A stretch of 64,000 nt of DNA from the NCBI GenBank assembly GCA_035626435.1, contig DASPNQ010000122.1, positions 108 to 64,107 on the forward strand, given 5' to 3'. The translations under genes were made by a program, and so were the position numbers. This document shows, piece after piece, positions 11,072 to 51,473 of the stretch. The notes below the pieces were generated by a model. That model saw only the letters and a list, made by a program, of their open reading frames with translations. It was not told the origin of the DNA and did not search any database. Numbering within the stretch: position 1 is the first letter of the stretch; each line of letters opens with the position of its first letter. Origin of the DNA: Vicinamibacterales bacterium. GTDB lineage: Bacteria; Acidobacteriota; Vicinamibacteria; Vicinamibacterales; UBA2999.

Positions 11072-11138
11072 AGCTTACCTCCAAGCCGGTGCGCACAAAT
11101 CTGGTAGCGGCCGGCCCTCGCTGCAGGTATCAACAGGC

Positions 11139-11702
11139 ATGTTGTTGATCGCCGCTGTCGCCGCGGTGCTTCAGGCCTCTCAGGCCGGCGCGCCCACGCC
11201 GCCGCCATTTGACTGCAGCGCCGCCGAATATCGCCAATTCGATTTCTGGGTGGGAGACTGGGACGTGGTCCCGAACCCCGAGACCATGCCGAAACCAGTA
11301 GCTCCGGCATCGCCGCGGGCGGATCGCAAGCCGGCCCGCAACGTCATTTCGAAAATCCAGAGCGGCTGCGTGATCCACGAAAACTGGGACGATGGCGCCG
11401 GCGGAACGGGCGAAAGCTATAACATCTTCGATCGCGTGCAGCGCCAGTGGCACCAGACCTGGGTCGCGAACAACGGTGGCCTGCATCGATACTGGGGCGA
11501 GCTGAAGAACGGCAGCATGGTTTATGTTGGCGAGGTGCCGCTGGGGCCGACGCAGCGCGTCCAGGGCCGCCGTACGGTGCGCGTCACGTTCACGCCGCTC
11601 GGGCCGGACCGGGTTCGGCAGTTTTCCGAATCGCTGAATACGGATGGCACGTGGAGCATCAACTACGACCTGATCTACACACGCCGGGCGAAGACGAAAT
11701 AA
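11139..11702 (+). CDS. Hypothetical secreted protein
   Basis: Start chosen at MLLIAAVAAVLQASQAGA (signal peptide). Coding-like composition. No family recognised with certainty. Confidence 0.6.
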   Translation: MLLIAAVAAVLQASQAGAPTPPPFDCSAAEYRQFDFWVGDWDVVPNPETMPKPVAPASPRADRKPARNVISKIQSGCVIHENWDDGAGGTGESYNIFDRVQRQWHQTWVANNGGLHRYWGELKNGSMVYVGEVPLGPTQRVQGRRTVRVTFTPLGPDRVRQFSESLNTDGTWSINYDLIYTRRAKTK

Positions 11703-15055: not shown

Positions 15056-15892
15056 CTACTTGTAGATCTTGGTGAAGTTGAGCGACGCGCCGCTCTTCTG
15101 CGGCTGCACGCCCACCGCGAATTGCGAGCTGCCGAAGTTCATCGTCACTGTCTTCGCCGCCGCGATGCCGAAGCCGGCCCCCATCACGACGTCGGTCGCG
15201 TGATGGCGGTTCCACGCCATCCGAGCGAGGGACACGTAGCTGCCGAGCGCGTACGCAGGCAGTCCCATCTTCCACCCGTAATAACGCTGGACGATCGTCG
15301 CCGTCGCGAACGCGCTGGCGGCGTGACCCGACGGGAACGACTTGTTGTTGCTGAAGTCGGGCCGGTCGCGGCGAACCGAGAACTTCAGCCCTTGCACGAT
15401 GACCTGCGAGAGTACCTGCGCGCGGACGATGTCGCGGCCGACCGCCGCGGCCTTGGCATTCCCGAACGCTCTGCCGAGACCGTACGTCGCAAAGCCGGCG
15501 CCAGCCTGGAATACGAAATTACCGATCAAGTTCCCCGACTGGAACAACGTCGTCGGAATATTGAAGCCGTTGTTGACGCCTTCACGATCCCAGGGGGCCA
15601 TCGCGACCGCGACAATGCCCACCGTGCTGAGCGTCTTGAGCGTGTCGTGGCGCCAGAAATTCCGGAAATCGCCGGCACTCAGCTTGAGCGCGTTGGTTTC
15701 GGGAACCGGCGACACGCGCGCGAGCTGCGGCACGCCGGAAGCCGGAAGCTGTTCTGTCGACTCGGTCGCCCCCTCAGGCGTAGCGACGGCGTCGCCGGGG
15801 CCCTCGGTTGGATCCGGCGCCTGGGCGGACGCCGGCACAGCAAGCGCAAGCGCGAAGAGGGCAATCGCAATACGAACTGAAAACATCATCAA
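15056..15892 (-). CDS. PAP2-family phosphatase (secreted/membrane)
   Basis: KFSVRRDRP ... PSGHAASAF ... RHHATDVVMG are the three PAP2 motifs. Signal peptide present. Confidence 0.85.
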   Translation of the reverse strand: MMMFSVRIAIALFALALAVPASAQAPDPTEGPGDAVATPEGATESTEQLPASGVPQLARVSPVPETNALKLSAGDFRNFWRHDTLKTLSTVGIVAVAMAPWDREGVNNGFNIPTTLFQSGNLIGNFVFQAGAGFATYGLGRAFGNAKAAAVGRDIVRAQVLSQVIVQGLKFSVRRDRPDFSNNKSFPSGHAASAFATATIVQRYYGWKMGLPAYALGSYVSLARMAWNRHHATDVVMGAGFGIAAAKTVTMNFGSSQFAVGVQPQKSGASLNFTKIYK

Positions 15893-16055
15893 CTCTATTT
15901 ATTAATTGTTGGTAAGCGCCGGCAAGCGCGCGTTCCAGTATCGCACGACGGAGCGGACCTGCACGCGATTTACGGAACGCGTAATTCTCTGATGAGGTTG
16001 TGTCACGGCAACCGGTCGAAACCAACCGCGCACCAGGATCCGGCGGCGAGACGCA

Positions 16056-17335: not shown

Positions 17336-18739
17336 CTATTTCAGGGCGGTGAGCACCGCGTCGATCATCTTCTTTGCGTCGCCGAACAGCATGCGGGTGT
17401 TGTCTTTGTAGAACAGCGGGTTGTCGACGCCGGCATAGCCGCTGGCCATGCCCCGTTTCATCACGATGCAGTGCTTCGCCTTCCACACCTCGAGGATGGG
17501 CATGCCGTAGATCGGGCTCGACGGATCGTCGAGCGCACCCGGATTGACGATGTCGTTGGCGCCAATCACGAGCACGACGTCGGTGTCGGGAAATTCGTGA
17601 TTGATCTCTTCCATCTCGAGCACGATGTCGTACGGCACTTTCGCTTCGGCGAGCAGGACATTCATGTGGCCGGGCAGACGGCCGGCGACCGGGTGAATCG
17701 CGAACCGGACGTTGGCGCCCTTGTCGCGCAGGATTTTCGTGACTTCGTACAACGGGTACTGCGCCTGCGCGACCGCCATGCCATAGCCTGGAACGACGAT
17801 CACGGTCTTGGCATCTCGCAGCAGCTCCGCCGTGTCTTCCGCGGTAATCGACTTCACTTCACCCGCGGGCTGAGCGGCGGCGCCGGCCGCTGGCGCGGCG
17901 CCTTCGTCGGCGCCGAAGCCGCCGAGGATCACGCTGAGGAACGAGCGGTTCATCGCGTGACACATGATGTAGCTCAGGATCGCGCCGCTCGAACCGACCA
18001 GCGCGCCGGTGATGATCAGCAGGTCGTTCTCGAGCATGAAGCCGGCCGCGGCCGCCGCCCATCCCGAATACGAATTCAGCATCGACACGACCACCGGCAT
18101 GTCCGCGCCGCCAATCGCCATCACCAGGTGGATGCCGAGCAGGCTCGCCACCGCGGTACAGGCCAGCAGCGGCCACAACGGCGCGAAGTAATCCCCGTGG
18201 TTGATGAAGAAGTAACCAAAGACGATACAGGCCAGCAGCATCACCAGGTTGAGGACGTGCCGGCCGGGCAGCAGCAGCGGCTTGCTGCCGATCAAGCCCT
18301 GCAACTTGCCATACGCGATCACCGAGCCCGTGAAGGTCACCGCGCCGACGAACACACCGACGAAGATCTCGGTTTCGTGGATGCGCGCCTCGATCCCGCC
18401 AAGCACTTGCGTGTGGTTGATGGCGGTCGCGATGCCGACCAGCACCGCCGCGGCCCCGACAAAGCTGTGGAGAATCGCGACCAGCTGCGGCATCGACGTC
18501 ATCTCGACCCGCGCGGCGAGCGTCGCGCCGATCGCCCCGCCGATCAACAGCGCCGCGGTCAGGACCGCGTAGCTATCCACCCGGGGCCCGAACGCGGTGA
18601 CGAGGACCGCAATCACCATCCCGAGCATGCCGAAGACATTGCCGCGGCGCGCCGACTCCTGCGCCGACAACCCGCCAAGGCTGAAGATGAAGAGGATCCC
18701 GGCGGCGAGATACGCGATGGTGACGAGGGTCTCAGGCAT
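17336..18739 (-). CDS. pntB: NAD(P) transhydrogenase subunit beta
   Basis: Full-length collinear PntB pattern: multi-TM N-half, then C-terminal dIII domain with [11 protein letters not shown] and [16 protein letters not shown]. Confidence 0.95.
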
Positions 18740-18742
18740 GCG

Positions 18743-20299
18743 CTAGCGGCGGAACATGCGCAGCATGCGCTGCGTGACGAGGAAGCCGCCGGCGATGTTG
18801 ATCGTCGCCAGCAGAATCGCGGCGGCGCCGAGGAGCACGATTGGCGAGGTCGGCGGCCCGCTGACCTGCAGCATGCCGCCAATGACAATGATGCCGCTGA
18901 TCGCGTTCGTGACGCTCATCAGCGGCGTGTGCAGCGCCGGCGTCACGTTCCACACCACCTGCCAGCCGACGATGCACGCCAGCGCGAAGACGGTGAGATG
19001 GGAGAGAAATGCCGGCGGCGCGATCGTACCGAACGCAATCAATGCCGCGGCGGCGACGATCGCGAAGACCGGCCCGGCGGCGCTGCGCTTTTTTTCGACC
19101 CTGACGGCCTGCGCCGCGGGCAGCTTCGGAGCCGCCTTCGGATCCGGCGGCAGTACTGCGGGTGGCCGCGCCGGAGGCGGCCACAGTAATTCGCCTTCGC
19201 GCAATACCAGCGCGCCGCGCACGACCTCGTCGGCGAGATCGAGATGGAAGTGGCTGGCGCCGCCGAGGTCGGCCAGCAGATGCGTCAGGTTGTTGCCGAA
19301 CAGCAGGCTCGCGGTCGGCGCCAGGCGGCTCGGCAGATCGGTGTAGCCCAGGATGTGGACGCCGTAGCGATCGACGACTTGTCCGGGAACCGTCAGCGCG
19401 CAGTTGCCGCCGTTTTCCGCCGCGAGGTCGACGATCACCGACCCCTTCTTCATCGACTTGACCATCTCCTCGGTGATCAAGATCGGCGCGGGACGGTTCG
19501 GGATCAGCGCGGTGGTGATGATGATGTCGACGTCCTTCGCCTGCGCGGCGAACATCTCCATCTCCGCCTTGATGAACGCCGGGCTCATCTCCTTGGCGTA
19601 GCCGCCCGCACCCTCGCCGTCTTCTTCGACGTTGAGCTCGATGAACTCGGCGCCCATGCTCTTGACTTGCTCTTTGACGGTCGGACGGGTGTCGAAGGCG
19701 CGCACGATGGCGCCCATTCCGCGCGCGGCGCCGATCGCCGCAAGGCCGGCAACGCCCGCGCCAATCACCAGAATCTTCGCGGGAGGCACGCGCCCCGCCG
19801 CCGTCATCTGGCCGGTGAAAAAACGTCCGTAGAAGCTTGCCGCTTCGACGACGGCGCGATAGCCGGCAATGTTGGCCATCGAGGACAGCGCGTCCATTTT
19901 CTGAGCGCGCGTGATGCGGGGAATCTGGTCGATTGCAATCGCGGTCGCCTTGCGCGCCGCCAGCTTGTCGATGATCTCTTTGTTCTTGCCGGGGTACAGG
20001 AACGAGATGATCGTGCCGCCCTCGCGCAACAGCTCGGCCTCGTGCACGCCGAGCGACGGGTGCACGGACGGCGGCTGCACTTTGAGGACGATATCCCCGG
20101 TCTGCCAGATCGCCCGTGTATCACCGATGATTTCAGCCCCTGCCGCGGCGTAGTCATCGTCGCCAAACGACGCGCCCTCGCCGGCGCCGGTTTCGACCGC
20201 GACCGCAAAGCCCATCTTGATCAACCGCGCGACGTTCTCGGGGGTGACCGCAACCCGGCGTTCTCCAGGGCGGCATTCTTTCGGGACGGCGAGCTTCAC
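18743..20299 (-). CDS. pntA: NAD(P) transhydrogenase subunit alpha (dI plus dII membrane part fused)
   Basis: Alanine-dehydrogenase-like dI domain ([20 protein letters not shown]), a Pro-rich linker and C-terminal TM helices. GTG start. 4-bp gap to pntB. Confidence 0.95.
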
Positions 20300-20316
20300 T
20301 CGGAGGGAATTATATG

Positions 20317-20372
20317 CAGCTTTCAGCTTTCGGCGATCAGCTATCAGCTATCGGCGGTCAGCTATCAGCCGG
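20317..20372 (+). repeat. Eight tandem heptamers of the TCAGC family (cagcttt cagcttt cggcgat cagctat cagctat cggcggt cagctat cagccgg)
   Basis: Read directly. Fills most of the spacer between the pntA start and the MATE gene stop. Confidence 0.9.
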
Positions 20373-20379
20373 CCGTAGC

Positions 20380-21714
20380 TCAAGCGAGCTTCAACCGGAA
20401 CTCGCGCTGTAGCATCAGCAGGTTGACGGTCATCTGCAGCAGCACGGCGAAAACGCCGAGGTACCAGATCCACGTCAGATGAAAGCCGGCCATTCGCGAG
20501 AGCATGATCGCGGGTATCACGCTGATCAGCAGCCGCAGCGCAGAGGTCACCAGCGACGGAATCGTATTGCCGAGCGCCTGAAACATGCTCGAGCTGACGA
20601 AGGTGATGCCCGACGCGACGAACGTGAACGCGACGATGCGGAGGTACTCGACGCCGACGCCGATGACGTCGGGATCGTTCGTGAAGACGGCCATCATCGG
20701 CCGGGCCGCGGCAAACGCGCCAATCGCCGCGATCAGCATCGCACCAGCCGCCATCGCCGCCGCCGTCCTGAAGGCCGCGCGCACGCGGTCGCCCTTCTTC
20801 GCGGCAAAGTTCTGTCCGGCGACCGGAGCGACGGCGAAACCGAGCGCGACCACCGGCAGGAATGCGGACTGCACGATTCGCAAACCGATCGTGAAGCCGC
20901 CCTGCGCCGCCGCCCCGAACGGTTTGGTGATCGCGTAGACCACGGCCAGATAGACACCCATCAACGCGAATTCCAGGCCCGCCGGTAGCCCGATTTTCAG
21001 CATCTGCCACCACACCTTCACTTGCGGCGACCAGTGCCCGAAGTGAAACCGCAGATACGCTTTCGCGTCGATGAAGTAAATCGAGATCCACGCGACGCCG
21101 ATGGCGATCGCCACGAGGGTCGAGACCGCCGCACCCGCGACGCCCCACGCCGGAAACGGCCCCCAGCCAAAAATCAGAAACGGCGCGAGCACGATGTTGA
21201 TGATCACGGTACCGGTCTGCACCAGCATGCCGGGTTTGAAATTGCCTGTACCCCGCAGCGCTGCGCCCATCGCGACCATCGCAAACTGCAGCGCCATCGC
21301 CGGAATGAACCAGAGCAGGTACTCCTCGGTTGCGAGCCGCATCCCTTCGCTCGCGCTCTGGCTAGCCGCGTAGTGATGGCGGAACAGCATCGCCACCGCC
21401 AGGAAGATCACCGCGACGACCATCGACAGCACCTGCGACTGGTTGAACAGGAAGATCGCGTGTTCCTGATCCTTGCGGCCCGACGCATGCGAAACGAGCG
21501 TCGTCGCGCCGACGCCGAGCACCTGCGTAATCGCCATGACGATGAACGAGAGATTGCCGGCCAGTCCGACGGCTGCAATCGCGTCGGTGCCGAGACGGCC
21601 GACCCAGAACAGATCGACCAGGATGTAGAGCGTCTGGAAGACCATGCTGACCAGCATGAAGCCGGTAGTTTTGAGGAGGTGGTTCGTGAGGGAACCGGTG
21701 GTGAGGTCCTGCAC
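20380..21714 (-). CDS. MATE-family efflux transporter
   Basis: 12-TM profile and an N-terminal LLKTTGFMLVSMVFQTLYILVDLFWVGRLG pattern typical of NorM/MATE. Confidence 0.9.
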   Translation of the reverse strand: MQDLTTGSLTNHLLKTTGFMLVSMVFQTLYILVDLFWVGRLGTDAIAAVGLAGNLSFIVMAITQVLGVGATTLVSHASGRKDQEHAIFLFNQSQVLSMVVAVIFLAVAMLFRHHYAASQSASEGMRLATEEYLLWFIPAMALQFAMVAMGAALRGTGNFKPGMLVQTGTVIINIVLAPFLIFGWGPFPAWGVAGAAVSTLVAIAIGVAWISIYFIDAKAYLRFHFGHWSPQVKVWWQMLKIGLPAGLEFALMGVYLAVVYAITKPFGAAAQGGFTIGLRIVQSAFLPVVALGFAVAPVAGQNFAAKKGDRVRAAFRTAAAMAAGAMLIAAIGAFAAARPMMAVFTNDPDVIGVGVEYLRIVAFTFVASGITFVSSSMFQALGNTIPSLVTSALRLLISVIPAIMLSRMAGFHLTWIWYLGVFAVLLQMTVNLLMLQREFRLKLA

Positions 21715-21830: not shown

Positions 21831-23630
21831 TTGATTCGAGATTTGCGTGCGGTGCTCGGGTGGCTGCCAGGACGAGAGCGGTGGCGGTGGCTGGCGCTGC
21901 TGCCGATCGCCGGCGCTGCGGCGGTCGTCGAGGCGGCAGGCGCGCTCGCCGTGTTCGGGTTGCTGCGGCTGGTCGTCGATCCCGATCAGGTGCGCACCGC
22001 ACCGGTAGTGTCGCGGCTCTGGACGATGTGGCCCGCCGACGATCCGCGAGTGATCGTCGCCGCGCTGGCGCTGGGCGTCGGCGTATTCTATCTGCTGCGC
22101 GGAGCGTTTCTCGCGTGGGTCGAATGGCTGCGGCTCGGCACCGTCTACCGGTCGGCCGCGGTCGCCGCGGAACGTCTGCTGGCGAGATACCTGGCTGCTG
22201 ATTACCTGTTTCACGTCAGACGCCGGTCGGCGTCGCTGATTGAGCCGATGGCCCGGGCGGCGGATATCGCGTACGAACTGTCGGCCGGATCGGCTGTGGC
22301 GATCTTCGCCGAAGCGGTGATCATCGCCGCGCTCGTCGCGGTACTGATGGTCTCCGCGCCGCCAATCACCCTCGTCACCGTCGCCATCATCCTGGCAATC
22401 GTCGCCGTGCCGATTGCGGTGATGCGGCGATCGTGGGAAACCATCGGCGAGACCGAGCGGCAGCTGTATCAACAGCAATTACATTTGCTGCAGCAGAGTC
22501 TGGGCGCCATCAAGGACGTCAAGGTGACCGGCCGGCAAACGTTCTTCGAGACGCAATTCCGTCACCTCAAGCGCGAGCTTGGGTCCACGAAGCAGCGGCG
22601 CGGGTGGGCGGCGACGGTGGCGCGTCTCGGCGTCGAAGCGACGCTGATCCTCGGCATGTTGCTCGTGGTGTTCCTGGTGATGCGACAAAGCGTGTCGAGC
22701 GGCGAGACCATTTCGATTCTCGCGTTGTTTGCCTATACCGGCTTCCGCGTCGTGCCGTCGGCAAACCGCATCATGCTGCACGCCGGTTACATGCGCGAGG
22801 CCCAGCCGTGGATTCGCGCGATGGATGACGACATGCGTCATCTGCGAGTGCCGCCGGCGCGGCCCTACGACCACGATCGGCCGATGCTCCAGCGGACGCT
22901 CTCGTGTGATGGCGTCTCGTATCGTTATGACGACACGGCGTCGTCGGCGCTCGAGGACGTATCGTTCACGATCGCCCGAGGCCAGTCGGTCGGCATCGTC
23001 GGACCGACGGGCGCAGGGAAAAGCACGCTGGTCGACGTGCTGCTCGGGCTGCTGCCGCCGACCCGCGGCAGCGTGCTGATCGACGGCGAGCCGCTGGAGG
23101 GACGCGAGCGCGCGTGGCAGCGGCAGATCGGTTACGTGCCGCAGGAGGTCTACCTGCTCGACGATACGCTGCGCCGCAATATCGCGTTCGGATTGCCCGA
23201 CGCGTCGATCGATGAAGCACGGCTCGCCAAAGCGGTGTCGCAGGCACGGCTCGACGAAGTGGTGGCGTTGCTGCCATCGCGTCTCGATACGATCGTTGGC
23301 GAGAACGGCGTTCGCTTGTCAGGAGGACAGCGGCAAAGGGTGGCGATTGCGCGCGCCTTGTATCATGACCCGCCCGTACTGTTTTTCGATGAAGCAACGG
23401 CTGCGCTCGACAATCAGACCGAGCGGGAAGTCACCGACGCGATCGCCCATCTTCGCCAGAGCGAAGGCGGCAGCGACGGACACGGCCCACGCACGGTCAT
23501 TGCGATCGCGCATCGCCTGTCCACGGTCAAGCACTGCGATCAGTTGATCTATCTGCGAGACGGGCGCGTCGCAGGCCTCGGCACCTATCAGGCGCTGATC
23601 AGCGATCCCGAATTTCGGCGTCTGACGTGA
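21831..23630 (+). CDS. ABC exporter, fused permease and ATPase (MsbA/PglK-like type I exporter)
   Basis: 6-TM N-half, Walker A GPTGAGKST, signature LSGGQRQRVAIARAL, Walker B LFFDEATAALD. Confidence 0.9.
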   Translation: MIRDLRAVLGWLPGRERWRWLALLPIAGAAAVVEAAGALAVFGLLRLVVDPDQVRTAPVVSRLWTMWPADDPRVIVAALALGVGVFYLLRGAFLAWVEWLRLGTVYRSAAVAAERLLARYLAADYLFHVRRRSASLIEPMARAADIAYELSAGSAVAIFAEAVIIAALVAVLMVSAPPITLVTVAIILAIVAVPIAVMRRSWETIGETERQLYQQQLHLLQQSLGAIKDVKVTGRQTFFETQFRHLKRELGSTKQRRGWAATVARLGVEATLILGMLLVVFLVMRQSVSSGETISILALFAYTGFRVVPSANRIMLHAGYMREAQPWIRAMDDDMRHLRVPPARPYDHDRPMLQRTLSCDGVSYRYDDTASSALEDVSFTIARGQSVGIVGPTGAGKSTLVDVLLGLLPPTRGSVLIDGEPLEGRERAWQRQIGYVPQEVYLLDDTLRRNIAFGLPDASIDEARLAKAVSQARLDEVVALLPSRLDTIVGENGVRLSGGQRQRVAIARALYHDPPVLFFDEATAALDNQTEREVTDAIAHLRQSEGGSDGHGPRTVIAIAHRLSTVKHCDQLIYLRDGRVAGLGTYQALISDPEFRRLT

Positions 23631-23645
23631 GGCCGCACGCCCCCG

Positions 23646-24629
23646 CTAACGGGCGCCGACGTCGGCGGTCGCGAGGGCGATCAGCGACAGCAGCAACGTG
23701 ATCCCGTACAAGATGATCACCGTGCGTCGTACCGACCAGCCAAGCGCTAGCAAGCGGTGATGGATGTGATGCCGGTCGGGCTCCGCGATTCTGCGCAAGG
23801 TGGCCACGAGCGTGCGCCCATGCGGCGGCGTCGGCACGCTGCGCCGCAACAGCGCCAACGCGCTGTCGGCGATTGGCAATGCGAAGATCATCAACGGCAC
23901 ACCCGCCGCGAGTGCGGTCGCCCCTTTTTGCCACCCCGTGATGGCGGTGGCGGCGAGCAGGAAGCCGGCGACCAGGCTGCCGCTGTCCCCCAGGAAAATC
24001 GACGCCGGCTCGAAGTTGTAGACCAGGAAGCCCAGCGCCGCACCGACCAGCGCCACCAGCAAAATGGCTTCGGCGCTGTGGCCACGTGCGATCAAGATCG
24101 CGGCACAGGCGGAGCCGGCAAGGACGACGACGCCCGCGGCCAGGCCGTCCACGCCGTCGATCAGGTTGAACGCGTTGGTCAGTCCGATCAGCCAGAGCGC
24201 CGTAACCGGCCACGCCAGCCAGCCCAGCGACCAGGTGTCGCCGAACAGCGTCACCCGCTCGATCAAGAGGCCGGACGACATCATCACGACCGCCGCCGCG
24301 GTTTCGAACAGCAGCTTCGGCGCCGGTCCCAACCCTCGCACGTCGTCGATTACGCCGGCCAGGAAGATCAGCGCGCCGGCGAGAAGAAAGGGACGCATCG
24401 CGTCCGACTGATCGGGCGTCAACGGGAAAAACACACCGGCCAGCAGCACGGCGAGCATCGCCGACCCGATGACCGCGACGCCGCCGAGGCGGGGTAGCGA
24501 TTGCAGATGAACCTTCCGGCCGCCTGGGGCGTCTACCAATCCAAGCACGGTCGAGATCCGTCCAATCAGCGGGGTTAGCATCAGGGCCAGGACGGCGCCA
24601 CTGACGCCAAGCAGCAGGTACACAGTCAC
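23646..24629 (-). CDS. WecA/MraY-superfamily polyprenyl-phosphate HexNAc-1-phosphate transferase
   Basis: NAFNLIDGVDGLAAG motif, LGDSGS block and multi-TM character. The track start (24689) would overlap the divergent gene by 60 bp. A GTG at 24629 (VTVYLLLGV...) abuts it exactly. Start uncertain. Confidence 0.85.
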   Translation of the reverse strand: MTVYLLLGVSGAVLALMLTPLIGRISTVLGLVDAPGGRKVHLQSLPRLGGVAVIGSAMLAVLLAGVFFPLTPDQSDAMRPFLLAGALIFLAGVIDDVRGLGPAPKLLFETAAAVVMMSSGLLIERVTLFGDTWSLGWLAWPVTALWLIGLTNAFNLIDGVDGLAAGVVVLAGSACAAILIARGHSAEAILLVALVGAALGFLVYNFEPASIFLGDSGSLVAGFLLAATAITGWQKGATALAAGVPLMIFALPIADSALALLRRSVPTPPHGRTLVATLRRIAEPDRHHIHHRLLALGWSVRRTVIILYGITLLLSLIALATADVGAR

Positions 24630-25859
24630 ATGCGAACCGCCGTTATCGTAGTCGGAGATCTGGGTCGCAGCCCACGGATGCAGTATCACGCCGCATCGCT
24701 GGCCGCCGCCGGCAGCGATGTCGACCTGATCGGTCTCGAAGGCGCGGCGGTGATGCGGATGTTGGCCTCAGACCCCCGGATTCGCGTGCACCGAATCCGA
24801 GACCGCGCGTTCGCCGGGCGTGCCCGCGGCGGAGTACGACGATTCGTGTACGGATCGGCCGCGCGCGGTATTCAGCAAGCCATCACCATCTTCGTGACAT
24901 CGATGCGCATCGCCAGGCCCGACGTGATCCTGGTCCAGAACCCGCCGGCGTTTCCGACGCTGTTCGTCGGCTGGCTGGTGGCGCGTCTGCGCGGCGCGCG
25001 CTTCATCATCGACTGGCACAACCTCTCGCACACGATCGCCGCGGTCAAGGTCGGGATCCATCATCGCGCGGTCAAGGCGCTGGCACGCAGCGAACGGCGT
25101 TGGGCGAGGCGCGCCGACGCACATCTGACGGTCTCGAAGACGTTTGCCGAATGGCTGAAGCGCGAGTACGGCGTCGTCGCGACGGTTGTCTACGATCGGC
25201 CCTCGTCGGCATTCGTACGGCCGACGCCCGAAGCCGCATCTGCGCTGTGGCAAAAGCTGGTGCGCGAGGCGCAACTGCCCGATGCGCGGTTGCCGATTGT
25301 GGTCTGTCCCACGAGCTGGACGCCCGATGAAGACTTCGATTTGCTCCTCGAGGCGCTCGAGCGTGCCGAGCGCACACTGACGCGGCAGCATGGTGACGCG
25401 CCGGCGCTGGCCGTGCTCCTGACCGGTCGTGGCCCGCTACGCGAGACGTTCGAGACCCGGCTGGCGCGCCGCAATCTGAAGGCGATCGTCGTCCGGATGT
25501 TGTGGCTGGAGCCCGAAGACTATCCGACGCTGGTCGGCATGGCCGATCTTGGGTTGTGCCTGCACCAGTCGTCGTCCGGCCTCGATTTGCCGATGAAGCT
25601 CGCCGATCTGAGCGGGGCCGGCATCCCGGTCGCGGTCTATGACTACTCGCCGGTGCTCGGCGAAGTGATGACCGCAGGGCAGCACGGCACGCTGTTCCGC
25701 GACCCGGGCGACCTCGCCGCGCTGTTGGTGGCCGCGGCAACCGGCACGGTGACACCGGATTCGCCGGTGGCGAAGTCGCGTGTGTGGCTGGCACAGCATC
25801 CGCCCGAGCGATGGTCCGAGCAGTGGGATGCGACGGCCCGCGCGGTGCTGGTGCGATAG
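24630..25859 (+). CDS. ALG1-like (CAZy GT33-type) beta-1,4-mannosyltransferase homologue lacking an N-terminal TM anchor
   Basis: Collinear conserved blocks recalled from eukaryotic ALG1: GDLGRSPRMQYHA, ILVQNPPAFP, IIDWHNL, YDRP, TSWTPDEDF, LTGRGPLRE, WLEPEDYP, LHQSSSGLDLPMK. Confidence 0.85.
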   Translation: MRTAVIVVGDLGRSPRMQYHAASLAAAGSDVDLIGLEGAAVMRMLASDPRIRVHRIRDRAFAGRARGGVRRFVYGSAARGIQQAITIFVTSMRIARPDVILVQNPPAFPTLFVGWLVARLRGARFIIDWHNLSHTIAAVKVGIHHRAVKALARSERRWARRADAHLTVSKTFAEWLKREYGVVATVVYDRPSSAFVRPTPEAASALWQKLVREAQLPDARLPIVVCPTSWTPDEDFDLLLEALERAERTLTRQHGDAPALAVLLTGRGPLRETFETRLARRNLKAIVVRMLWLEPEDYPTLVGMADLGLCLHQSSSGLDLPMKLADLSGAGIPVAVYDYSPVLGEVMTAGQHGTLFRDPGDLAALLVAAATGTVTPDSPVAKSRVWLAQHPPERWSEQWDATARAVLVR

Positions 25860-25912
25860 CGCATACGACGCGATCGCTCGCGGATGCGCGACGTGCCTGG
25901 CAGCCGAGTAGA

Positions 25913-27541
25913 ATGACTCGGTTCATGATGCTCCCCATCTCCGACGTTGCCGCCCGGCTTGGACTCACGCCTGATCTGCTCGAACCTTACGGACATGCCA
26001 TCGCCAAGATCAAGCTCGAAGCGCTCGAACGCTTTCCGGCTCGGCGCGGCAAGCTGATCCTCGTCACGGCGATCACGCCGACGACCAGCGGTGAAGGCAA
26101 GACCGTTAATACCATCGGTCTCACCCAGGGGCTGGTGAAGCTTGGCCACAATGCCGTCGCCGCGTTGCGCGAGCCGTCGCTGGGTCCGGTGTTCGGCATG
26201 AAGGGCGGCGCGACCGGTGGCGGCAAGGCGTCACTCTCGCCAATCGATCGCATCAACCTGCATTTCACCGGCGACTTTCACGCGATCACCTCGGCGCATA
26301 ACCTGCTCGCCGCGCTGATCGACACGCACCTGCACTTCGGAAACGACCTGCGGCTCGATGCCAAAGAGATTCTGTGGCCGCGATGCATGGACATGAACGA
26401 TCGTGCGCTGCGGCGCATCGCCACCGGCCTCGGCGGCCGCGAAAGCGGTCCGGCGCGGGAGACCGGCTTTGTGATCACGGCCGCATCCGAGATCATGGCG
26501 ATCCTCGCACTTGCCGACGGCCGCGCCGATTTGCGCCAGCGGCTCGGACGAATCGTGGTCGGCTTCAATTACGACGGCAAGCCGGTGACGGCCGCGGATC
26601 TGAAGGCGGTCGGCCCGATGATGCTGCTGCTCAACGATGCCTTGATGCCGAACCTGGTGCAGACCACCGAGGGCGCGCCGGCGATCGTGCATTGCGGTCC
26701 GTTCGCGAACATCGCGCACGGCACGAGCAGCGTGCTCGCGCAACGGATCGGCCTGCACCTCGCCGACTTCGTCGTCAACGAAACGGGCTTCGCCGCCGAT
26801 CTTGGGGCGGAAAAGTTTTTCGATCTGGTGATGCCGATGTGCGGACACGTGCCGGCCGCGGCGGCGGTGATCGTGACGTTGAAGGCTCTGCGCACGCAGG
26901 GCGGCTCGCCCGACGGACCGGTCGATCTGGGATTTCCAAACCTCGCACGGCATTTCGACAACCTGAAACGGTGGGGTGTGCAGCCGGTCATCGCCTTGAA
27001 TCGGTTCCCTGGCGACAAGGATGACGACCTCGATCAAGTGCTGAAGTATTGCCGCACCCTCGGTGCGGACGCGGCGATTTGCGAAGGCTACACCAAGGGC
27101 GGCGAAGGGATGCAGGACCTGGCCGCAAAGATCGTGGCGGTCGCGTCGACGGCGGACCCGTCGAAGGTGAAGCCGATTTACGCTCGTGAGCAGTCGTTGA
27201 CCGAGAAGATCGCCGCCGTTGCCACGCAGGTCTATGGCGCCGAGCGGGTGTCGTTCAAGCCCGCTGCAAAATCGCGCCTCGAAAAGTTCGAGCAGCTTGG
27301 CTACGGCAAGTTGCCGGTCTGTATCGCCAAGACGCAGTACTCGTTCACCGACGATCCCAAGCAGGCCGGCGCGCCGATCGGCTGGCCGTTGACGATCAGC
27401 GACGTCACGCTGTCAGCCGGTGCCGGGTTCGTGGTGGCGATCGCTGGAGCGATGATGCTGATGCCAGGCCTGGGCAAAGTACCGCAGGCCCAGAAGCTGG
27501 ACGTCGACGATCAGGGACGAGCGATCGGGATGGAATACTGA
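25913..27541 (+). CDS. fhs: Formate--tetrahydrofolate ligase
   Basis: PTTSGEGKTVNTIGL P-loop block and full-length collinear FTHFS pattern. Start chosen at MTRFMMLPISD, in frame within track ORF 25784. Confidence 0.95.
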   Translation: MTRFMMLPISDVAARLGLTPDLLEPYGHAIAKIKLEALERFPARRGKLILVTAITPTTSGEGKTVNTIGLTQGLVKLGHNAVAALREPSLGPVFGMKGGATGGGKASLSPIDRINLHFTGDFHAITSAHNLLAALIDTHLHFGNDLRLDAKEILWPRCMDMNDRALRRIATGLGGRESGPARETGFVITAASEIMAILALADGRADLRQRLGRIVVGFNYDGKPVTAADLKAVGPMMLLLNDALMPNLVQTTEGAPAIVHCGPFANIAHGTSSVLAQRIGLHLADFVVNETGFAADLGAEKFFDLVMPMCGHVPAAAAVIVTLKALRTQGGSPDGPVDLGFPNLARHFDNLKRWGVQPVIALNRFPGDKDDDLDQVLKYCRTLGADAAICEGYTKGGEGMQDLAAKIVAVASTADPSKVKPIYAREQSLTEKIAAVATQVYGAERVSFKPAAKSRLEKFEQLGYGKLPVCIAKTQYSFTDDPKQAGAPIGWPLTISDVTLSAGAGFVVAIAGAMMLMPGLGKVPQAQKLDVDDQGRAIGMEY

Positions 27542-36648: not shown

Positions 36649-37062
36649 GTGGCGGTGACCAAGCCGCCGATCACGGCGACGCTGACTTGGCAGGGCGGGC
36701 TGAAGTTCCGCGCGGCCACGACGCGATCCGCAATCACTCTCGACAGCGACGGCCGCGACGGTCCCTCGCCACCCGAAGCGGTGGCGATGGCGCTGGCAGG
36801 CTGCATGGCGATCGATCTCGCCGACATCATCGTCAAGGGCCGCCATCCGCTGACCTCGCTGGAAGCCCGGGTCAGCGGCAACCGCCAAGAGGACCCGCCG
36901 CGGCACTTTCTGCGTTTCACGTTGGTGTTCATCGTTGGCGGCGACGTGCCGCCGCACGCCATTCAACGCGCCATCGACCTGTCGCGCGAGAAGTACTGCT
37001 CGGTCTGGCATTCGCTGCGGCGTGACATCGACCTCGAGACCAGCTTCGAGGTCCACGCCTGA
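36649..37062 (+). CDS. OsmC-family peroxiredoxin-like protein
   Basis: GPSPPEAVAMALAGCMAIDL and REKYCSVWHSL contain the two conserved Cys blocks. Confidence 0.85.
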   Translation: MAVTKPPITATLTWQGGLKFRAATTRSAITLDSDGRDGPSPPEAVAMALAGCMAIDLADIIVKGRHPLTSLEARVSGNRQEDPPRHFLRFTLVFIVGGDVPPHAIQRAIDLSREKYCSVWHSLRRDIDLETSFEVHA

Positions 37063-37100
37063 GCACCGCCGCGCCGCCGCGGAAGGCCTACCTCGATTGG

Positions 37101-38171
37101 TTGCGTGGCATCGCGGTGGTGGTGATGGTCGGCGCACACGTGATCGACGCGTGGACACGACCGGAGGATCGCAGCCGCACGCTCTACATGTACACGGTGT
37201 TCGTTGCCGGTCTGGCGTCGCCGTTGTTCCTGTTCCTTGCTGGGCTGACTCTGGCGATGGCCGCATCGGCGCGCGCGACGAAGCTCGGACACGCCGCGGC
37301 GGCGTCGACGGCACGCTGGCGCGGCTTGCAGATCTTCGCGCTGGCCTTCCTGTTCCGCCTGCAATCGCAACTGCTTGGCTGGGGCTCGCTCAGCAACTTT
37401 CTCAAGGTCGACATCCTCAACGTGATGGGGGTCGCGATGATGCTGGCGGCGCTGCTCTGGGGGCTCTCGCAACAGCGTGGCCTGCGCATCCTGCTGTTTG
37501 CGGTGGCCGCCGTGGTCGTGACGATGACGACGCCGTTGATTCGCGAATGGGGCGCGCTGTCGGCATTGCCCGACGCGATCGAGGCCTACCTTCGTCCGCT
37601 TCCGGGCCGGACCAACTTCGCGCTCTTTCCATGGATGGGATTCCTGTTGGCCGGCGCCGTCGCCGGTGAGCTGGTCTATGCCGCGCGGTCGGCGCGCAGC
37701 GAGCGGCGCCTGCACATTGCGTTGCTGTTCGCCGGAGTGGCCGGCGCGATCCTGGCCCACGAAGCGTCGTTTCGGCCGTCGATTTACCCGGTCTCGAATT
37801 TCTGGACCAGCTCGCCGACGTTCTTCTTCATTCGGCTCGGCATCTGTACGGCGATGCTGCCCATCGCGAAGATGGTCGATGCATTGCACGGTCTGATCCG
37901 CGCGTGGATCCGCGACCTGCCTCCCGGCGCGCCGGGTGTCGTCATCACGACGCTCGGACGATCGTCGCTGTTCGTGTACTGGATTCACGTCGAGATGGCC
38001 TACGGAGCCATCGCGACCCCGCTCAAGCGGGCGCTGCCCCTCGAAGCGGCGCTGGTTGCGACGGTGTTGCTGTGCGGCGCGCTCTACGCCATCACGCGCT
38101 GGAAGGACCGGAAGATGCAGGACGTGGAGCTGACGGGCGCGCTCCGCATTCTCGCGCCCGTTTTGAAATAG
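37101..38171 (+). CDS. DUF1624 / heparan-alpha-glucosaminide N-acetyltransferase-like membrane acyltransferase
   Basis: The LDWLRGIAVVVMVGAHV start motif and multi-TM character. The true start may be a non-canonical codon slightly upstream of the TTG at 37101. Confidence 0.7.
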   Translation: MRGIAVVVMVGAHVIDAWTRPEDRSRTLYMYTVFVAGLASPLFLFLAGLTLAMAASARATKLGHAAAASTARWRGLQIFALAFLFRLQSQLLGWGSLSNFLKVDILNVMGVAMMLAALLWGLSQQRGLRILLFAVAAVVVTMTTPLIREWGALSALPDAIEAYLRPLPGRTNFALFPWMGFLLAGAVAGELVYAARSARSERRLHIALLFAGVAGAILAHEASFRPSIYPVSNFWTSSPTFFFIRLGICTAMLPIAKMVDALHGLIRAWIRDLPPGAPGVVITTLGRSSLFVYWIHVEMAYGAIATPLKRALPLEAALVATVLLCGALYAITRWKDRKMQDVELTGALRILAPVLK

Positions 38172-38231: not shown

Positions 38232-40496
38232 GAACGCCATCAGATAGGTCATCTTCGCGATCACCGCTCGCGAGATCAGCGCACCGCTGCGGGAGTCGTG
38301 ACGCTCGTTGTAGACCAGGTAAATATCGCTGAGCGGGCGGTGGATGATGTCGAGCCGCACGTTCGAGCTCCATTGATTGGTGTCGGTGTTGTACTGGACC
38401 AGCGCGTTTACGAACATCTTGGTGGTGAAATAGACGTTGAAGCGGCCGGTCAGCAGGTGCGTCACGTACGAACCCGAGGCGAGGTCGATGTCGTTGATCT
38501 GGTCGCTCAACGACACGTTGAAGTGCTGATTCATGCGGAACGTGCCGCCGATCGTGTAGTTGCGCCGATAGCCGTCGTAGAAATCGCCCGTGCCGGCCCG
38601 CAGATTCATCGAGAACGGCGCGGCGGAGTTGGTATTGGCGAGGATGAAGTGCTCCTTGAACTCGTAACGGCCCGGATCGACGTAGATGTTGCGGCGGCTG
38701 TTGATGGTAAAGCGCTCGTCGATCACTTCGATGTTCGGGTTGGTGCCGATCTCGATGAAGGTGCTGTTCTGGAAGTTCACTGGCCAATGCCAGTCCATAT
38801 AGCGCGACTCGAGACCGCCGCCGTTGCGCCTCGTAAAGTTCTCGAACTGGATGTGCGGAAACGTTTCCCGCATCCACCGCTGGAACTTCCGCGGGCGGAA
38901 CCGGCGGCCGAGATAGAACTCGGAGTTGTCGACGCCGCGCCGCGGCACGAAGCCCATCTCGTCGTTGAAGCGGCCGCCGATCGTCTGGTACATGCCGCGC
39001 GCTTCCCACTTGTTGTCGCGGTAGCCGACGCCGCTTTTCGAATACCAGTCGTCGCCCTCGCCGGGCACGCGCGTCACCGGTGAGTCGCTCTTGGCGATGG
39101 CCACGTTGGCGGTCAGGTCGCCGAGAAAGCGGAAATTGGCGTCAGCCCCGAAGCCGCGATTGTGATCGGCGCCCCGTGGATCCTTGTTGAGAAACATCAC
39201 GCCGATGTCGGAGTTGGCGAGGATGTTGCGGCGCAGTCGCAGCGCGGTGAAGTTGGTGGACGGGCTCGGTCCCTGCTCGCGCTGCTGGATGTTGAGCGCG
39301 CCGACCGACCAGCCACCGACCCGCCCGGTGAGGCGCGAGCCGGCGAGCAGCGGAATCGCATCGCCGCTGGGCGACAAGCCGATCTGGCGGCTGAAGAAGA
39401 AGATCATGTCCTGCGATGCGTTCTGGCGGCCACCACCGCCCCCGCCGCCGCCGCCCCCGCCACCGCCGCCGGTATTGCCCGAGCCGAACTGGAACACGCC
39501 GGAGTTCTCGAGGAAGAAATCGCGCTTCTCCGGGAAGAACAGACTGAAGCGCGTCAGGTTGACCTGCTGCTCGTCGGCTTCGACCTGCGAAAAGTCCGTG
39601 TTCACCGTGAAGTCCCAGGTGAGCCCGGTGGTGACGCCGTACTTGACGTCGATGCCGGCGTCGAAATCGCGGTCGACCGCAACGTGTGGCAGCTGGTTGA
39701 AGTTGGCCAGCGCATACGGCTTGACGCGCACGTTCGCGCCCGGGCGCAGACCCTGCAGGCCTTCGAAGCGGCCGGCCATCGATACGCGCGACAACTGATG
39801 GATGCGGCGCAGCGGCGCCCAGTAGCTGTTTTCGTTTTTTCGCCGCAGGCGGCGCTGGAAGTTGATGCCCCAGGTCTGCATCGCCTCGGGTCCGAACTTC
39901 AGCGTCTTGAACGGAATTTCGATTTCCGCATACCAGCCGTCTTCGCCGATCCGCGTCGCGACGTCCCAGATGCCGTCCCAGTTCGAGTTCTGCTCGCGGC
40001 CTTCGTTCGACATCTGCGAGTCCCATTTCGCGCCGGCCGGATTGATTGCGAACTGGTAGCCGTTGCGCTCGTCATGGAACGTGTCGATGACGACCTGGAA
40101 GCCGTCGGCGGATCCCGTGTTGAAGTCCTTGCGCAGCTCGTTGACGATGATCTCGCCGGGCGATGGATCCTTCGCGAACACGCCGATGTACAGCGCGCGC
40201 TGATCGTAGAGCAGCCGCACTTCGGTGTCGTAGGTCGCCGGGGCGCCCTCGTTCGGATCGTTCTGCACGAAGTTGGTGGCCAGCGGCGCCGAGCCCCACG
40301 ACGCTTCATCGAGGCGGCCGTCGAGCACGATTGGTCCCGCGGTCTGCGTCGCCGTCAGGCGGCGGCTGGTGCGCGCCGTGTCGTAGTTGATCGTCTTCGA
40401 CTCGGCATTTTGCGCCGCCGCGGTCGTGCCCGACACCACTGCTGCAAAAATGAGCGCACCCGTTACGACACGGGCGTGTAGCATGTGCAAATTCAT
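38229..40496 (-). CDS. CBM9-like plus DUF5916 outer-membrane beta-barrel-type protein
   Basis: IVLDGRLDEASWGSAPLATNFVQNDPNEGAPATYDTEVRLLYDQRALYIGVFA...FQVVIDTFHDERNGYQFAINPAGAKWD matches the CBM9/DUF5916 N-terminal pattern. Start chosen at MNLHMLHARVV (signal peptide). Confidence 0.75.
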   Translation of the reverse strand: MNLHMLHARVVTGALIFAAVVSGTTAAAQNAESKTINYDTARTSRRLTATQTAGPIVLDGRLDEASWGSAPLATNFVQNDPNEGAPATYDTEVRLLYDQRALYIGVFAKDPSPGEIIVNELRKDFNTGSADGFQVVIDTFHDERNGYQFAINPAGAKWDSQMSNEGREQNSNWDGIWDVATRIGEDGWYAEIEIPFKTLKFGPEAMQTWGINFQRRLRRKNENSYWAPLRRIHQLSRVSMAGRFEGLQGLRPGANVRVKPYALANFNQLPHVAVDRDFDAGIDVKYGVTTGLTWDFTVNTDFSQVEADEQQVNLTRFSLFFPEKRDFFLENSGVFQFGSGNTGGGGGGGGGGGGGGRQNASQDMIFFFSRQIGLSPSGDAIPLLAGSRLTGRVGGWSVGALNIQQREQGPSPSTNFTALRLRRNILANSDIGVMFLNKDPRGADHNRGFGADANFRFLGDLTANVAIAKSDSPVTRVPGEGDDWYSKSGVGYRDNKWEARGMYQTIGGRFNDEMGFVPRRGVDNSEFYLGRRFRPRKFQRWMRETFPHIQFENFTRRNGGGLESRYMDWHWPVNFQNSTFIEIGTNPNIEVIDERFTINSRRNIYVDPGRYEFKEHFILANTNSAAPFSMNLRAGTGDFYDGYRRNYTIGGTFRMNQHFNVSLSDQINDIDLASGSYVTHLLTGRFNVYFTTKMFVNALVQYNTDTNQWSSNVRLDIIHRPLSDIYLVYNERHDSRSGALISRAVIAKMTYLMAF
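39427..39468 (-). repeat. Run of 14 consecutive Gly codons (mixed GGC/GGT/GGG) inside the DUF5916 CDS
   Basis: Reverse complement reads ggc ggc ggt ggc ggg ggc ggc ggc ggc ggg ggc ggt ggt ggc. Confidence 0.9.
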
Positions 40497-40616
40497 GGGT
40501 GTTGTTGATGCCCCGACGGGCGTTTGACGACAGAATATCGTCGCCCGAAACGGGCGAGGGGATGCAACCGATTGTAAATCTTCACGGGGACTGCCCGTGG
40601 GCATACGAGGACGGCG

Positions 40617-41915
40617 ATGAAGTTAGCGATCACGCTCGGTGTGCTGGCGATGCTGAATCTGCCAGTCCAGGCCCAGGAGGCGCGGCGCCGCTGGGAAATG
40701 CAGCGCCAGATCCGGCTCGACAAGTTCGAGCAGGTGCTGCCGCGCGCGATGCGCGACAACCAGATCGACATGTGGATTGTCGCCGTCAAGGAAAACCACT
40801 ACGACCCGCTGTGGAACGATCTCGGTCGCGGCTACGTCACCGGCATGGGCTACTACGTGTTCACCGATCGCGGCGGCGACCGCATCGAGCGCGCCGCGCT
40901 GGGCCCCGGCGGCTACATGCTCAGCGAGTCCGGCGCCTACGACATCATCGCGCCCGCGGCGACGCTCGCGGAACACGTCAAAGCGCGCAACCCCAGACGC
41001 ATCGGCCTGAACATGTCCGACGAGATCGGCCCCGCCGACGGCCTGTCGGTGACGATGCTCGCGCACTTGCGCAAGACACTGGGCGAGACCCTGGCATCAC
41101 GATTCGTGTCCGCCGAAAAGCTCGTCGCCGATTTCCGATCGCACCGCGTCGCCGCCGAGATCGTCGCGTTCGGCGAAGCCGCCGGCATCGCCATCGAGCT
41201 CGCAGAGCGCGCGCTGTCCAACGAGGTGATCACGCCCGGCAAGACCACTCTCGAGGACGTCGCATGGTGGATGCAGGATCAATTGCTGGCACGCGCGCTC
41301 GGCTCCGAGTTCGACATGCCCTCCGTCTACATCACCGGTCCAACCGGGATCGCGGCCACCTCCAATGCGCGCATCATCCAGCCCGGTGACGTGCTGATGA
41401 TCGACTGGGGCGTGCAGTTGATGAATTTCGGCACCGACGTCAAGCGCGTCGCCTACGTGCTGAAGCCGGGCGAAACGGCGCCGCCAAAGAGCATCCAGCA
41501 CGCCTTCGACAAGGCGATCTCCGTGCGTGACGTGTTCAAAAAGGCAATCAAGGTCGGTGTTCGCGCCGACGCGACGATGAAGGCGATGGACGCTGCGCTG
41601 CAGGCGGCCGGTTTCGGCGTGATCGAATTCAATCGCCCCAACAAGGACGACAAGACCGACGTCGTCTACGGCTTCCACCCGGTCGGCAACACCGGGCACG
41701 ACATCGGTCCGTCATTGACGACCTGGCAGCCGCTGCAGACGACGTTCGTCATGCACGACAACCACATGTTTTCGTTCGAATACTTCGCCTACACCCCAAT
41801 CCCCGAATGGGGTGGCGCGAAACTGCGCATCCCCATCGAAGACGATGCGATCCTGACCGACGCCGGCATTCAGTTTCTTCACCCGGCCAACTATCGGTTG
41901 TTGGTGATCAAATGA
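40617..41915 (+). CDS. Secreted M24-family metallopeptidase (Xaa-Pro aminopeptidase-like)
   Basis: Signal peptide. Pita-bread metal-ligand pattern GDVLMIDWG...GTDVKR...HPVGNTGHDIG...FSFEY. Confidence 0.85.
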   Translation: MKLAITLGVLAMLNLPVQAQEARRRWEMQRQIRLDKFEQVLPRAMRDNQIDMWIVAVKENHYDPLWNDLGRGYVTGMGYYVFTDRGGDRIERAALGPGGYMLSESGAYDIIAPAATLAEHVKARNPRRIGLNMSDEIGPADGLSVTMLAHLRKTLGETLASRFVSAEKLVADFRSHRVAAEIVAFGEAAGIAIELAERALSNEVITPGKTTLEDVAWWMQDQLLARALGSEFDMPSVYITGPTGIAATSNARIIQPGDVLMIDWGVQLMNFGTDVKRVAYVLKPGETAPPKSIQHAFDKAISVRDVFKKAIKVGVRADATMKAMDAALQAAGFGVIEFNRPNKDDKTDVVYGFHPVGNTGHDIGPSLTTWQPLQTTFVMHDNHMFSFEYFAYTPIPEWGGAKLRIPIEDDAILTDAGIQFLHPANYRLLVIK

Positions 41916-51465: not shown

Positions 51466-51473
51466 CACGTGTT

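Follow-up and report, generated by a model that had tools for sequence, protein, structure and literature searches.

Gene content of the locus

We analysed a 64,000-nucleotide (nt) stretch of DNA from a bacterium of the order Vicinamibacterales (Acidobacteriota; GenBank contig DASPNQ010000122.1), hereafter the window, in which a gene resembling eukaryotic ALG1 lies beside two genes that may belong to the same glycan pathway. The ALG1-like gene (24630–25859, plus strand) encodes a glycosyltransferase of the GT-B type and of the CAZy family GT33 type, with 409 amino acids and similarity to ALG1 over its full length. Divergent from it is a gene (23646–24629, minus strand) for a 327-residue, WecA-like polyprenyl-phosphate N-acetylhexosamine (HexNAc)-1-phosphate transferase of the PNPT/GPT superfamily (hereafter GPT). 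On the far side of the GPT gene, a fused exporter of the ABC type (21831–23630, plus strand; 599 amino acids) is a candidate flippase. All three reading frames are intact, with GC distributed over the codon positions as in genuine coding regions, and the GC content of the module (0.66–0.67; 0.67 for the ALG1-like gene) is the same as that of its flanks.

A sequence-only reading of this DNA had proposed that the three genes form a minimal module for assembling and flipping a lipid-linked HexNAc–mannose glycan. That remains the best reading, and the linkage recurs in about 45 genomes; what did not stand is the word ‘minimal’ in its original sense, because the compactness arose secondarily, through loss of GT4 genes that most relatives retain.

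A bacterial member of the ALG1 family

The eight sequence blocks that the earlier reading listed for eukaryotic ALG1 are all present in the 409-residue protein (8 of 8): GDLGRSPRMQYHA, ILVQNPP, IIDWHNL, YDRP, PTSWTPDEDF, TGRGPLRE, WLEPEDYP and LHQSSSGLDLPMK. Their order is collinear with that in fungal and insect proteins named ALG1 or ‘glycosyltransferase family 33’ in an alignment of 37 sequences, in which the window protein also retains every invariant column (17 of 17) and every near-invariant one (26 of 26). Membership of the family was judged by the motif set GD.GRSPRM.YHA, VQNPP, IDWHN, YDRP, TSWT.DEDF, TG.GP, WL..EDYP and H.SSSGLDLPMK. The window protein begins at the first conserved block, before which eukaryotic ALG1 carries 30–75 additional hydrophobic residues; the N-terminal transmembrane anchor is therefore missing, as had been suggested.

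Among 1.84 billion representative proteins, an exhaustive phmmer search matched only 3437 with an E-value of 1e-3 or better, of which 872 reached 1e-30 or better; the ALG1-like proteins are thus a small and distinct family. The best 150 of the 3437 include proteins of Pneumocystis, Lipomyces and Salpingoeca that are 35–40% identical over the full length; Lipomyces ALG1 is 35% identical to the window protein (full length, E 9e-66). Used as a query, this Lipomyces protein retrieved proteins from fungi and insects that bear the names chitobiosyldiphosphodolichol beta-mannosyltransferase, ALG1, ‘glycosyltransferase family 33’ or ‘CAZyme family GT33’.

Pfam and NCBIfam cannot distinguish GT33 from GT4, because neither holds a GT33-specific model; on the window protein they reported generic GT-B domains and one irrelevant match of 23 bits. 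As a proxy for the dbCAN/CAZy hidden Markov model of GT33 we built a profile from the 121 proteins that the ALG1 search retrieved; the majority are fungal and insect sequences that are named ALG1, and the others are unnamed, come from metagenomes and have about the same length. Against this profile the window protein scores 353 bits (E 1e-108) and other bacterial ALG1-like proteins score 390–426 bits, whereas two GT4 proteins (GT4a and GT4b) and ALG2-like proteins from related gene clusters reach at most 3.5 bits. By these comparisons the protein has the specific affinity to GT33/ALG1 that had been claimed for it. An ordinary GT4 enzyme whose blocks are merely generic is ruled out by the gap between 353 and ≤3.5 bits and by the block alignment.

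The AlphaFold2 model of the protein (predicted local distance difference test (pLDDT) score 93.6, predicted template modelling (pTM) score 0.91) has two Rossmann-like domains in a GT-B fold. Its nearest structures by Foldseek are GT-B enzymes of families GT4 and GT5, with template modelling (TM) scores of 0.6–0.7 and 12–18% identity. Comparison of the protein with PDB sequences gave no relevant match, and neither that search nor Foldseek found a GT33 structure in the PDB copy searched. From family membership and from analogy with ALG1, the window protein is predicted to be a β-1,4-mannosyltransferase that uses GDP-mannose (GDP-Man) and a lipid-pyrophosphate (PP)-HexNAc acceptor.

A GPT-superfamily neighbour with an abutting start codon

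The divergent neighbour was correctly placed in the GPT/WecA/ALG7 superfamily. It matches PF00953 (E 3.5e-40) and, in a search for the PNPT patterns DDxx, NxxNxxDGxDGL, GDxGS and HIHH, carries DDVR, NAFNLIDGVDGL, GDSGS and HIHH at residues 95, 152, 214 and 288. Among solved structures it matches MraY (46 bits) and human DPAGT1 (32 bits), and one of its orthologues is labelled ‘UDP-GlcNAc:undecaprenyl-phosphate GlcNAc-1-phosphate transferase’ by JGI. The NCBIfam scores for WecA (114 bits) and MraY (82–92 bits) all lie under the cut-offs, which for the WecA equivalog model TIGR02380 is 326 bits; by that measure the protein is WecA-like yet no WecA orthologue.

The longest minus-strand open reading frame of this gene begins at 24689 and would overlap the ALG1-like gene by 60 nt. 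By comparison with relatives, however, the true start is the GTG at 24629, since the orthologues in two related loci (L001 and L003) begin at the positions corresponding to ‘VTVYLLLG’ and the gene call of an independent metagenome contig (L085) also gives 327 amino acids. The two divergent start codons thus abut without overlap as CAC|ATG (24627–24632), where the GTG of GPT, read from the minus strand, meets the plus-strand ATG of the ALG1-like gene; the intergenic distance is zero. In nearly all orthologous loci these starts are 0–10 nt apart or overlap by a few nucleotides; the junctions in L001, L003, L006, L013–L036 and L085 resemble that of the window in having abutting or near-abutting starts. 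Such an arrangement implies that promoter and ribosome-binding signals lie within the opposite gene, or that the mRNAs are leaderless. A promoter scan of 23400–26000 found no σ70 consensus.

A candidate flippase

The third gene encodes a transmembrane domain fused to a nucleotide-binding domain (PF00664 and PF00005), the arrangement of exporters with the ABCB, or type IV, fold. Its description as PglK/MsbA-like is borne out, with the proviso that its NCBIfam scores, led by MsbA (270 bits; cut-off 602), HepA (249 bits) and PglK (226 bits; cut-off 1000), are all under the cut-offs. In the PDB its best solved half-transporter is PglK (203 bits, full length, residues 76–580). The exporter had been said to end 16 bp away on the convergent side; it is convergent with the GPT gene, across a 15-nt spacer between the stop codons (23631–23645), and not with the ALG1-like gene.

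The exporter is likewise adjacent in about 45 orthologous loci. It is also 38–44% identical (356–407 bits) to exporters beside ALG1-like genes in metagenome-assembled genomes (MAGs) of Binatia, delta-type proteobacteria, Verrucomicrobia and other Vicinamibacteria. In the Binatia, ‘delta’ or ‘proteobacterium’ and Verrucomicrobia MAGs the homologous exporter gene is co-directional with, and directly downstream of, ALG1-like or ALG2-like genes. These associations make the protein a candidate flippase for a lipid-linked glycan.

Conserved gene order and loss of GT4 genes

We compared the locus with its orthologues, each examined with flanks of 10 kb. In about 45 species-level genomes of the Vicinamibacterales type the genes follow one order: PntB, PntA and MatE; the ABC exporter (plus strand); an optional GT4b, then GT4a and GPT (all minus strand); the ALG1-like gene (plus strand); and Fhs. 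In L001–L003 and most other orthologous loci, one or two GT4 genes (GT4a, GT4b) thus sit between the exporter and GPT, at the site of the 15-nt spacer in the window. Both are entirely gone from the window, by a clean deletion. The independent contig L085 has the same GT4-less arrangement, which shows that the form in the window is no assembly artefact. In L019 an internally deleted remnant of GT4a (L019:8559–9015) retains residues 5–27 and 237–384, indicating that GT4 loss was recurrent and occurred more than once. Judged from these comparisons, the compact module is a derived, reduced state, and the window holds the most reduced form that we saw.

GT4a has no specific name. Pfam ALG11_N gave no match to it even at E ≤ 1, members of its cluster carry no specific names and a search for homologues yielded nothing more precise than ‘glycosyltransferase involved in cell wall biosynthesis’; its best PDB match is a WbaZ fragment, and weak. 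GT4a may resemble ALG11 in the motifs GGGN..W, YVHYP and EEHFG, a tentative lead.

Neither an oligosaccharyltransferase (OST) of the STT3 type, nor a GT28 enzyme of the ALG13/14 type, nor an ALG2-like protein was detected in the 64-kb window, and Pfam annotation of the remainder of the window yielded no further glycosylation gene.

Distribution and descent

ALG1-like relatives occur in 267 stretches among 185,579 species-representative genomes, in keeping with the earlier expectation that clear ALG1 homologues are uncommon in bacteria. By the taxonomy of the best 80 of the 267, they come mostly from Vicinamibacterales and other Acidobacteriota, with some from Binatia, ‘delta proteobacterium’, ‘proteobacterium’ and Verrucomicrobiia MAGs. 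Close homologues (70–75% identity) abound both in metagenomes from soil and fresh water and among MAGs labelled Vicinamibacterales or Acidobacteriota, and Binatia homologues are 42–47% identical to the window protein. Nine loci (L005, L006, L007, L009, L010, L031, L046, L050 and L053) share the PntAB–MatE–ABC–GT4–GPT–ALG1–Fhs synteny at 60–75% identity and are recorded as Acidimicrobiia, Cyanobacteriota, Bifidobacteriaceae or Microthrixaceae; these records are probably mislabelled bins of Vicinamibacterales-type Acidobacteriota.

The phylogenetic check proposed with the sequence-only reading favours a vertical bacterial lineage. In a neighbour-joining tree (401 columns, 100 bootstraps), bacteria and eukaryotes are split with 100% bootstrap support, and the window protein falls inside a Vicinamibacterales clade that has 100% support and a long stem. 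Because the gene has the GC content of its flanks and sits in a nested, fully supported clade on the bacterial side of that split, the data fit vertical inheritance within Acidobacteriota.

The implied rarity holds, but the novelty is weakened: close homologues of the window protein already carry the JGI name ‘beta-1,4-mannosyltransferase’, and bacterial homologues were assayed in a preprint of October 2025. In that work, Xu et al. (bioRxiv 10.1101/2025.10.15.682550) described 204 bacterial ALG1 homologues, proposed a bacterial origin of ALG1 on the basis of sequences and enzyme assays, and found three of five homologues to be active β-1,4-mannosyltransferases: GaALG1, PoALG1 and BiALG1, from Gammaproteobacteria, Polyangia and Binatia, respectively. 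These three complement yeast alg1 and convert GlcNAc2-PP-phytanyl (GlcNAc, N-acetylglucosamine) to Man-GlcNAc2-PP-phytanyl, which human ALG2 extends (bioRxiv 10.1101/2025.10.15.682550). In 2016 a phylogenomic survey of N-glycosylation (PMC4973528) had been unable to trace Alg1 to any relative in prokaryotes and described its origin as unknown.

Richer clusters outside the Vicinamibacterales clade

Outside the clade of the window, several glycosylation partners flank the ALG1-like gene in L060, L067, L070, L073 and L081, and in L057 and L059 on short contigs; the hosts are Binatia, ‘delta proteobacterium’ or ‘proteobacterium’ and Verrucomicrobiia MAGs. The clusters span L073:5447–14325, L067:4402–15632, L070:1825–13092, L060:2279–14286 and L081:4427–14303 with 17623–20651. 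Among the partners are a fused MurG-like GT28 protein (PF03033 and PF04101), which is of the family of ALG13/14, and an ALG2-like GT4 protein with the signatures GIGGAER and EHFG[IY]VPLE, defined for ALG2 by Xu et al. (bioRxiv 10.1101/2025.10.15.682550). GT4a-like genes, a homologous GPT and the exporter related to that of the window are also present. A further partner is a protein of about 1,000 residues with PF02516/PF21436, the domains of STT3/PglB/AglB. Such STT3-type OSTs occur in L059, L060, L067, L070, L073 and L081, only in these clusters of other phyla, and three of the six reading frames (L067, L070 and L073) have a WWDYG motif. Taken together, these genes amount to a eukaryote-like gene set for lipid-linked oligosaccharides in bacteria. 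One Vicinamibacteria MAG (L082) likewise combines ALG2-like, ABC, GT4a-like, GPT, GT28 and ALG1-like genes, with no OST within 21 kb.

Two other groups of ALG1-like genes were observed. A second Vicinamibacteria clade, 43–45% identical to that of the window (L054, L055, L063, L064, L077 and others), lies among metabolic-looking, unannotated families and usually has neither GPT nor the ABC exporter. In this clade an ALG2-like GT4 gene is only sometimes adjacent, as at L054:11277–12602 (minus strand) and L063:11137–12627 (minus strand), beside the ALG1-like gene at 10001–11245. Four further bacterial relatives (P0121–P0124; 47–51% identity) have altered DLPxx motifs and a degenerate first motif at alignment columns 76–100, where ‘AAPVCSHRTERHA’, for instance, replaces ‘GDLGRSPRMQYHA’; they may be inactive or neofunctionalized paralogues.

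A proposed lipid-linked pathway and its alternatives

On balance, we lean towards reading the locus as a reduced, vertically inherited bacterial lipid-linked-oligosaccharide pathway of the Vicinamibacterales type that uses an ALG1-family (GT33) enzyme. The argument for a pathway of assembly and flipping is that ALG1-like genes accompany a PNPT-type transferase and one family of ABC exporters across phyla. Judging by family membership, GPT would first transfer HexNAc-1-phosphate, most likely GlcNAc-1-phosphate, from a UDP-sugar to undecaprenyl phosphate at the cytoplasmic face of the membrane. The ALG1-like protein, as a soluble or peripheral GT-B enzyme, would then add a β-1,4-linked mannose from GDP-Man, by homology to ALG1 and to the assayed bacterial proteins. 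Its acceptor would be undecaprenyl (Und)-PP-GlcNAc, or Und-PP-GlcNAc2 if an unlinked GlcNAc transferase is encoded elsewhere in the genome. Conserved linkage suggests that the PglK-like exporter would flip this short glycan, on its lipid carrier, across to the periplasmic side of the membrane; there an enzyme encoded outside the window would transfer the glycan to its acceptor, be that a protein, a lipid or a polymer. In relatives, one or two GT4 enzymes would lengthen the chain; the organism of the window would make the HexNAc–Man core only. We infer that the most likely product is Man-β-1,4-GlcNAc(1–2)-PP-undecaprenol, assembled and then flipped, its activity, acceptor and destination being read from homology and gene linkage.

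Several observations weigh against this reading. Experimental support for such a pathway comes by analogy, from the three active bacterial ALG1 homologues; the other two of the five assayed were inactive, and none of the five is from the clade of the window. Within 10 kb of the orthologous Vicinamibacterales loci there is no OST, GT28 or ALG2-like gene, and without a local GT28 the chitobiose acceptor of ALG1 is not supplied locally. The exporter falls under every NCBIfam cut-off and, in the clade of the window, lies on the strand opposite to the GPT operon, so that synteny is what ties it to the pathway. The long branch of the clade and its lower score (353 against 390–426 bits) make an altered donor or acceptor specificity possible, and the loss of GT4a could mean that the pathway is decaying.

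A bolder proposal, which we advance tentatively and regard as somewhat doubtful, is that the module descends by reduction from a native bacterial, eukaryote-like N-glycan pathway and still makes the Man-β-1,4-GlcNAc(2) core on undecaprenyl pyrophosphate for glycosylation of proteins or lipids of the envelope. The ancestral pathway would have comprised GPT, a GT28 enzyme of the ALG13/14 type, ALG1, ALG2, a further GT4, the ABC flippase and an STT3-type OST, and its complete, clustered form would survive in the Binatia, ‘deltaproteobacterial’ and Verrucomicrobia MAGs. If this proposal is true, bacteria would own a physiological pathway for the conserved eukaryotic N-glycan core, and the bacterial ancestry that has been proposed for ALG1 and ALG2 would gain a concrete pathway as its donor.

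Two alternatives to the reduced oligosaccharide pathway seem rather unlikely to us, about equally so, although each has substance. One is that the ALG1-like enzyme of this Vicinamibacterales clade has changed its specificity, using another donor or a non-HexNAc acceptor; it would then supply an envelope polymer or a glycolipid with its linkage unit, like the GlcNAc–ManNAc unit of TagO/TagA (ManNAc, N-acetylmannosamine), and no N-glycan-like core. Besides the stem branch and the profile scores, this would fit the loss of GT28, ALG2-like and OST genes from a neighbourhood in which other phyla have them, and the variable, unspecifically annotated GT4a/GT4b partners. Yet all motif blocks and invariant columns of eukaryotic and bacterial ALG1 are kept, and the recurrence of the GPT, GT4a-like and ABC families in the OST-containing clusters argues for continuity of the pathway.

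The other alternative concerns the exporter, which could have no part in the pathway: it might export drugs or lipids, like the MatE pump beside it, and be a neighbour only by inherited synteny, in which case the glycan would either stay unflipped or depend on a Wzx-type flippase encoded elsewhere. Its gene is convergent with the GPT operon and not co-transcribed with it, a MATE efflux gene (MatE) adjoins it and its top NCBIfam match, under cut-off, is MsbA. What speaks for a shared function is that 38–44% identical exporters stand beside ALG1- and ALG2-like genes in loci that have no other synteny to the window, and that PglK is the top solved half-transporter.

It is improbable that the module is a decaying remnant whose ALG1-like gene became functionless after the loss of GT4a/GT4b, OST, GT28 and ALG2. 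The clean deletion of GT4a and GT4b in the window, the independent decay of GT4a in L019 and the lack of downstream enzymes in the 64 kb would be expected of such a remnant, but the GPT, ALG1-like and ABC frames are intact with all catalytic and invariant residues, the codon-position GC pattern is normal, and the identical arrangement is intact on the independent contig L085. Recent horizontal gain from a eukaryote, or eukaryotic contamination, for which the 35–40% identity to fungal, choanoflagellate and insect ALG1 might speak, is barely credible and was rejected on composition (GC 0.67, like the flanks), synteny (bacterial gene order across dozens of MAGs) and the tree (100% bootstrap apart from eukaryotes), and the gene has neither an intron nor a transmembrane anchor.

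Other features of the window

About 8 kb upstream of the module lies a gene for a PAP2-superfamily phosphatase (15059–15898, minus strand), the product of which could be an undecaprenyl-pyrophosphate phosphatase. Two genes that are syntenic in L001 and L003, for a membrane acyltransferase of the HGSNAT/acyltransferase-3 family (37026–38168) and a CBM9/DUF5916 protein (38232–40622), encode proteins that could act on envelope glycans. Between 46000 and 53633 the GC content dips to 0.60–0.62, compared with about 0.65 elsewhere; this stretch encodes a DndB-like protein (47525–48919), then a Ser/Thr kinase with DUF4384 (49459–51462) and then a caspase-domain/TPR protein (51153–53630), and may be a defence or signalling islet.

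Comparison with known systems

Bacterial ALG1/GT33 homologues are already known, and the window is a new, stripped-down example of them and not a new kind of system. Our literature searches found no description of bacterial ALG1 gene clusters beyond the preprint of Xu et al., so that the head-to-head GPT/ALG1 pair, the linked ABC family and the OST-containing clusters of other phyla appear to be undescribed in the searchable literature. Within its family the copy in the window is reduced and unremarkable, which limits its individual importance, and the most interesting features lie outside the window. The locus and its relatives nevertheless provide the genomic context that is missing from the 2025 proposal of a bacterial origin for ALG1; the clusters indicate that the bacterial enzymes have a role in physiology, and they hint at places to look for a natural bacterial Man-GlcNAc2 glycan. 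An anchor-less bacterial GT33 protein with a high-confidence model is also an attractive target that could yield the first GT33 structure, and it could serve bacterial glyco-engineering aimed at N-glycan cores of the eukaryotic type.

The window protein shares with eukaryotic ALG1 full-length, collinear homology (31–37% identity), all blocks, the GT-B fold and a predicted reaction at the cytoplasmic face on polyprenol-PP-HexNAc. It differs in having no N-terminal transmembrane anchor and in its carrier, which would be undecaprenol instead of dolichol; partners of the ALG13/14, ALG2 and ALG11 types and an OST are absent from its vicinity in the window. The homologues of Xu et al. are of the same protein family. 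However, the window falls in a Vicinamibacterales lineage of its own, which has a long branch and a gene neighbourhood that is different and reduced; the text of the preprint, its supplementary tables apart, makes no mention of Acidobacteriota or of gene neighbourhoods (bioRxiv 10.1101/2025.10.15.682550).

The locus recalls the pgl locus of Campylobacter jejuni (PglC/A/J/H/I, PglK and PglB) in combining a phosphoglycosyl transferase, a cytoplasmic GT-B enzyme and an ABC flippase for lipid-linked oligosaccharides, and the clusters of other phyla also carry an OST of the STT3/PglB family. In the window, however, initiation would fall to a polytopic enzyme of the PNPT (WecA/ALG7) type and not to one of the PglC type, the first elongating enzyme belongs to GT33 and not to GT4 like PglA, no OST is encoded and the exporter reaches 226 of the 1000 bits set as the cut-off for PglK.

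In the TagO/TagA pathway, which makes the linkage unit of teichoic acid, a single inverting transferase adds a β-1,4-linked, manno-configured sugar to GlcNAc-PP-Und. The locus resembles this and the other pathways initiated by WecA-like enzymes (enterobacterial common antigen and O-antigen) in that a WecA-like GPT would be followed by a single inverting transferase. TagA, however, is a GT26 enzyme that uses UDP-ManNAc, whereas the window enzyme is of the GT33 type, and export in those pathways is by Wzx or by ABC-2 transporters (TagGH, Wzm/Wzt), whereas the window encodes a fused exporter of the ABCB type.

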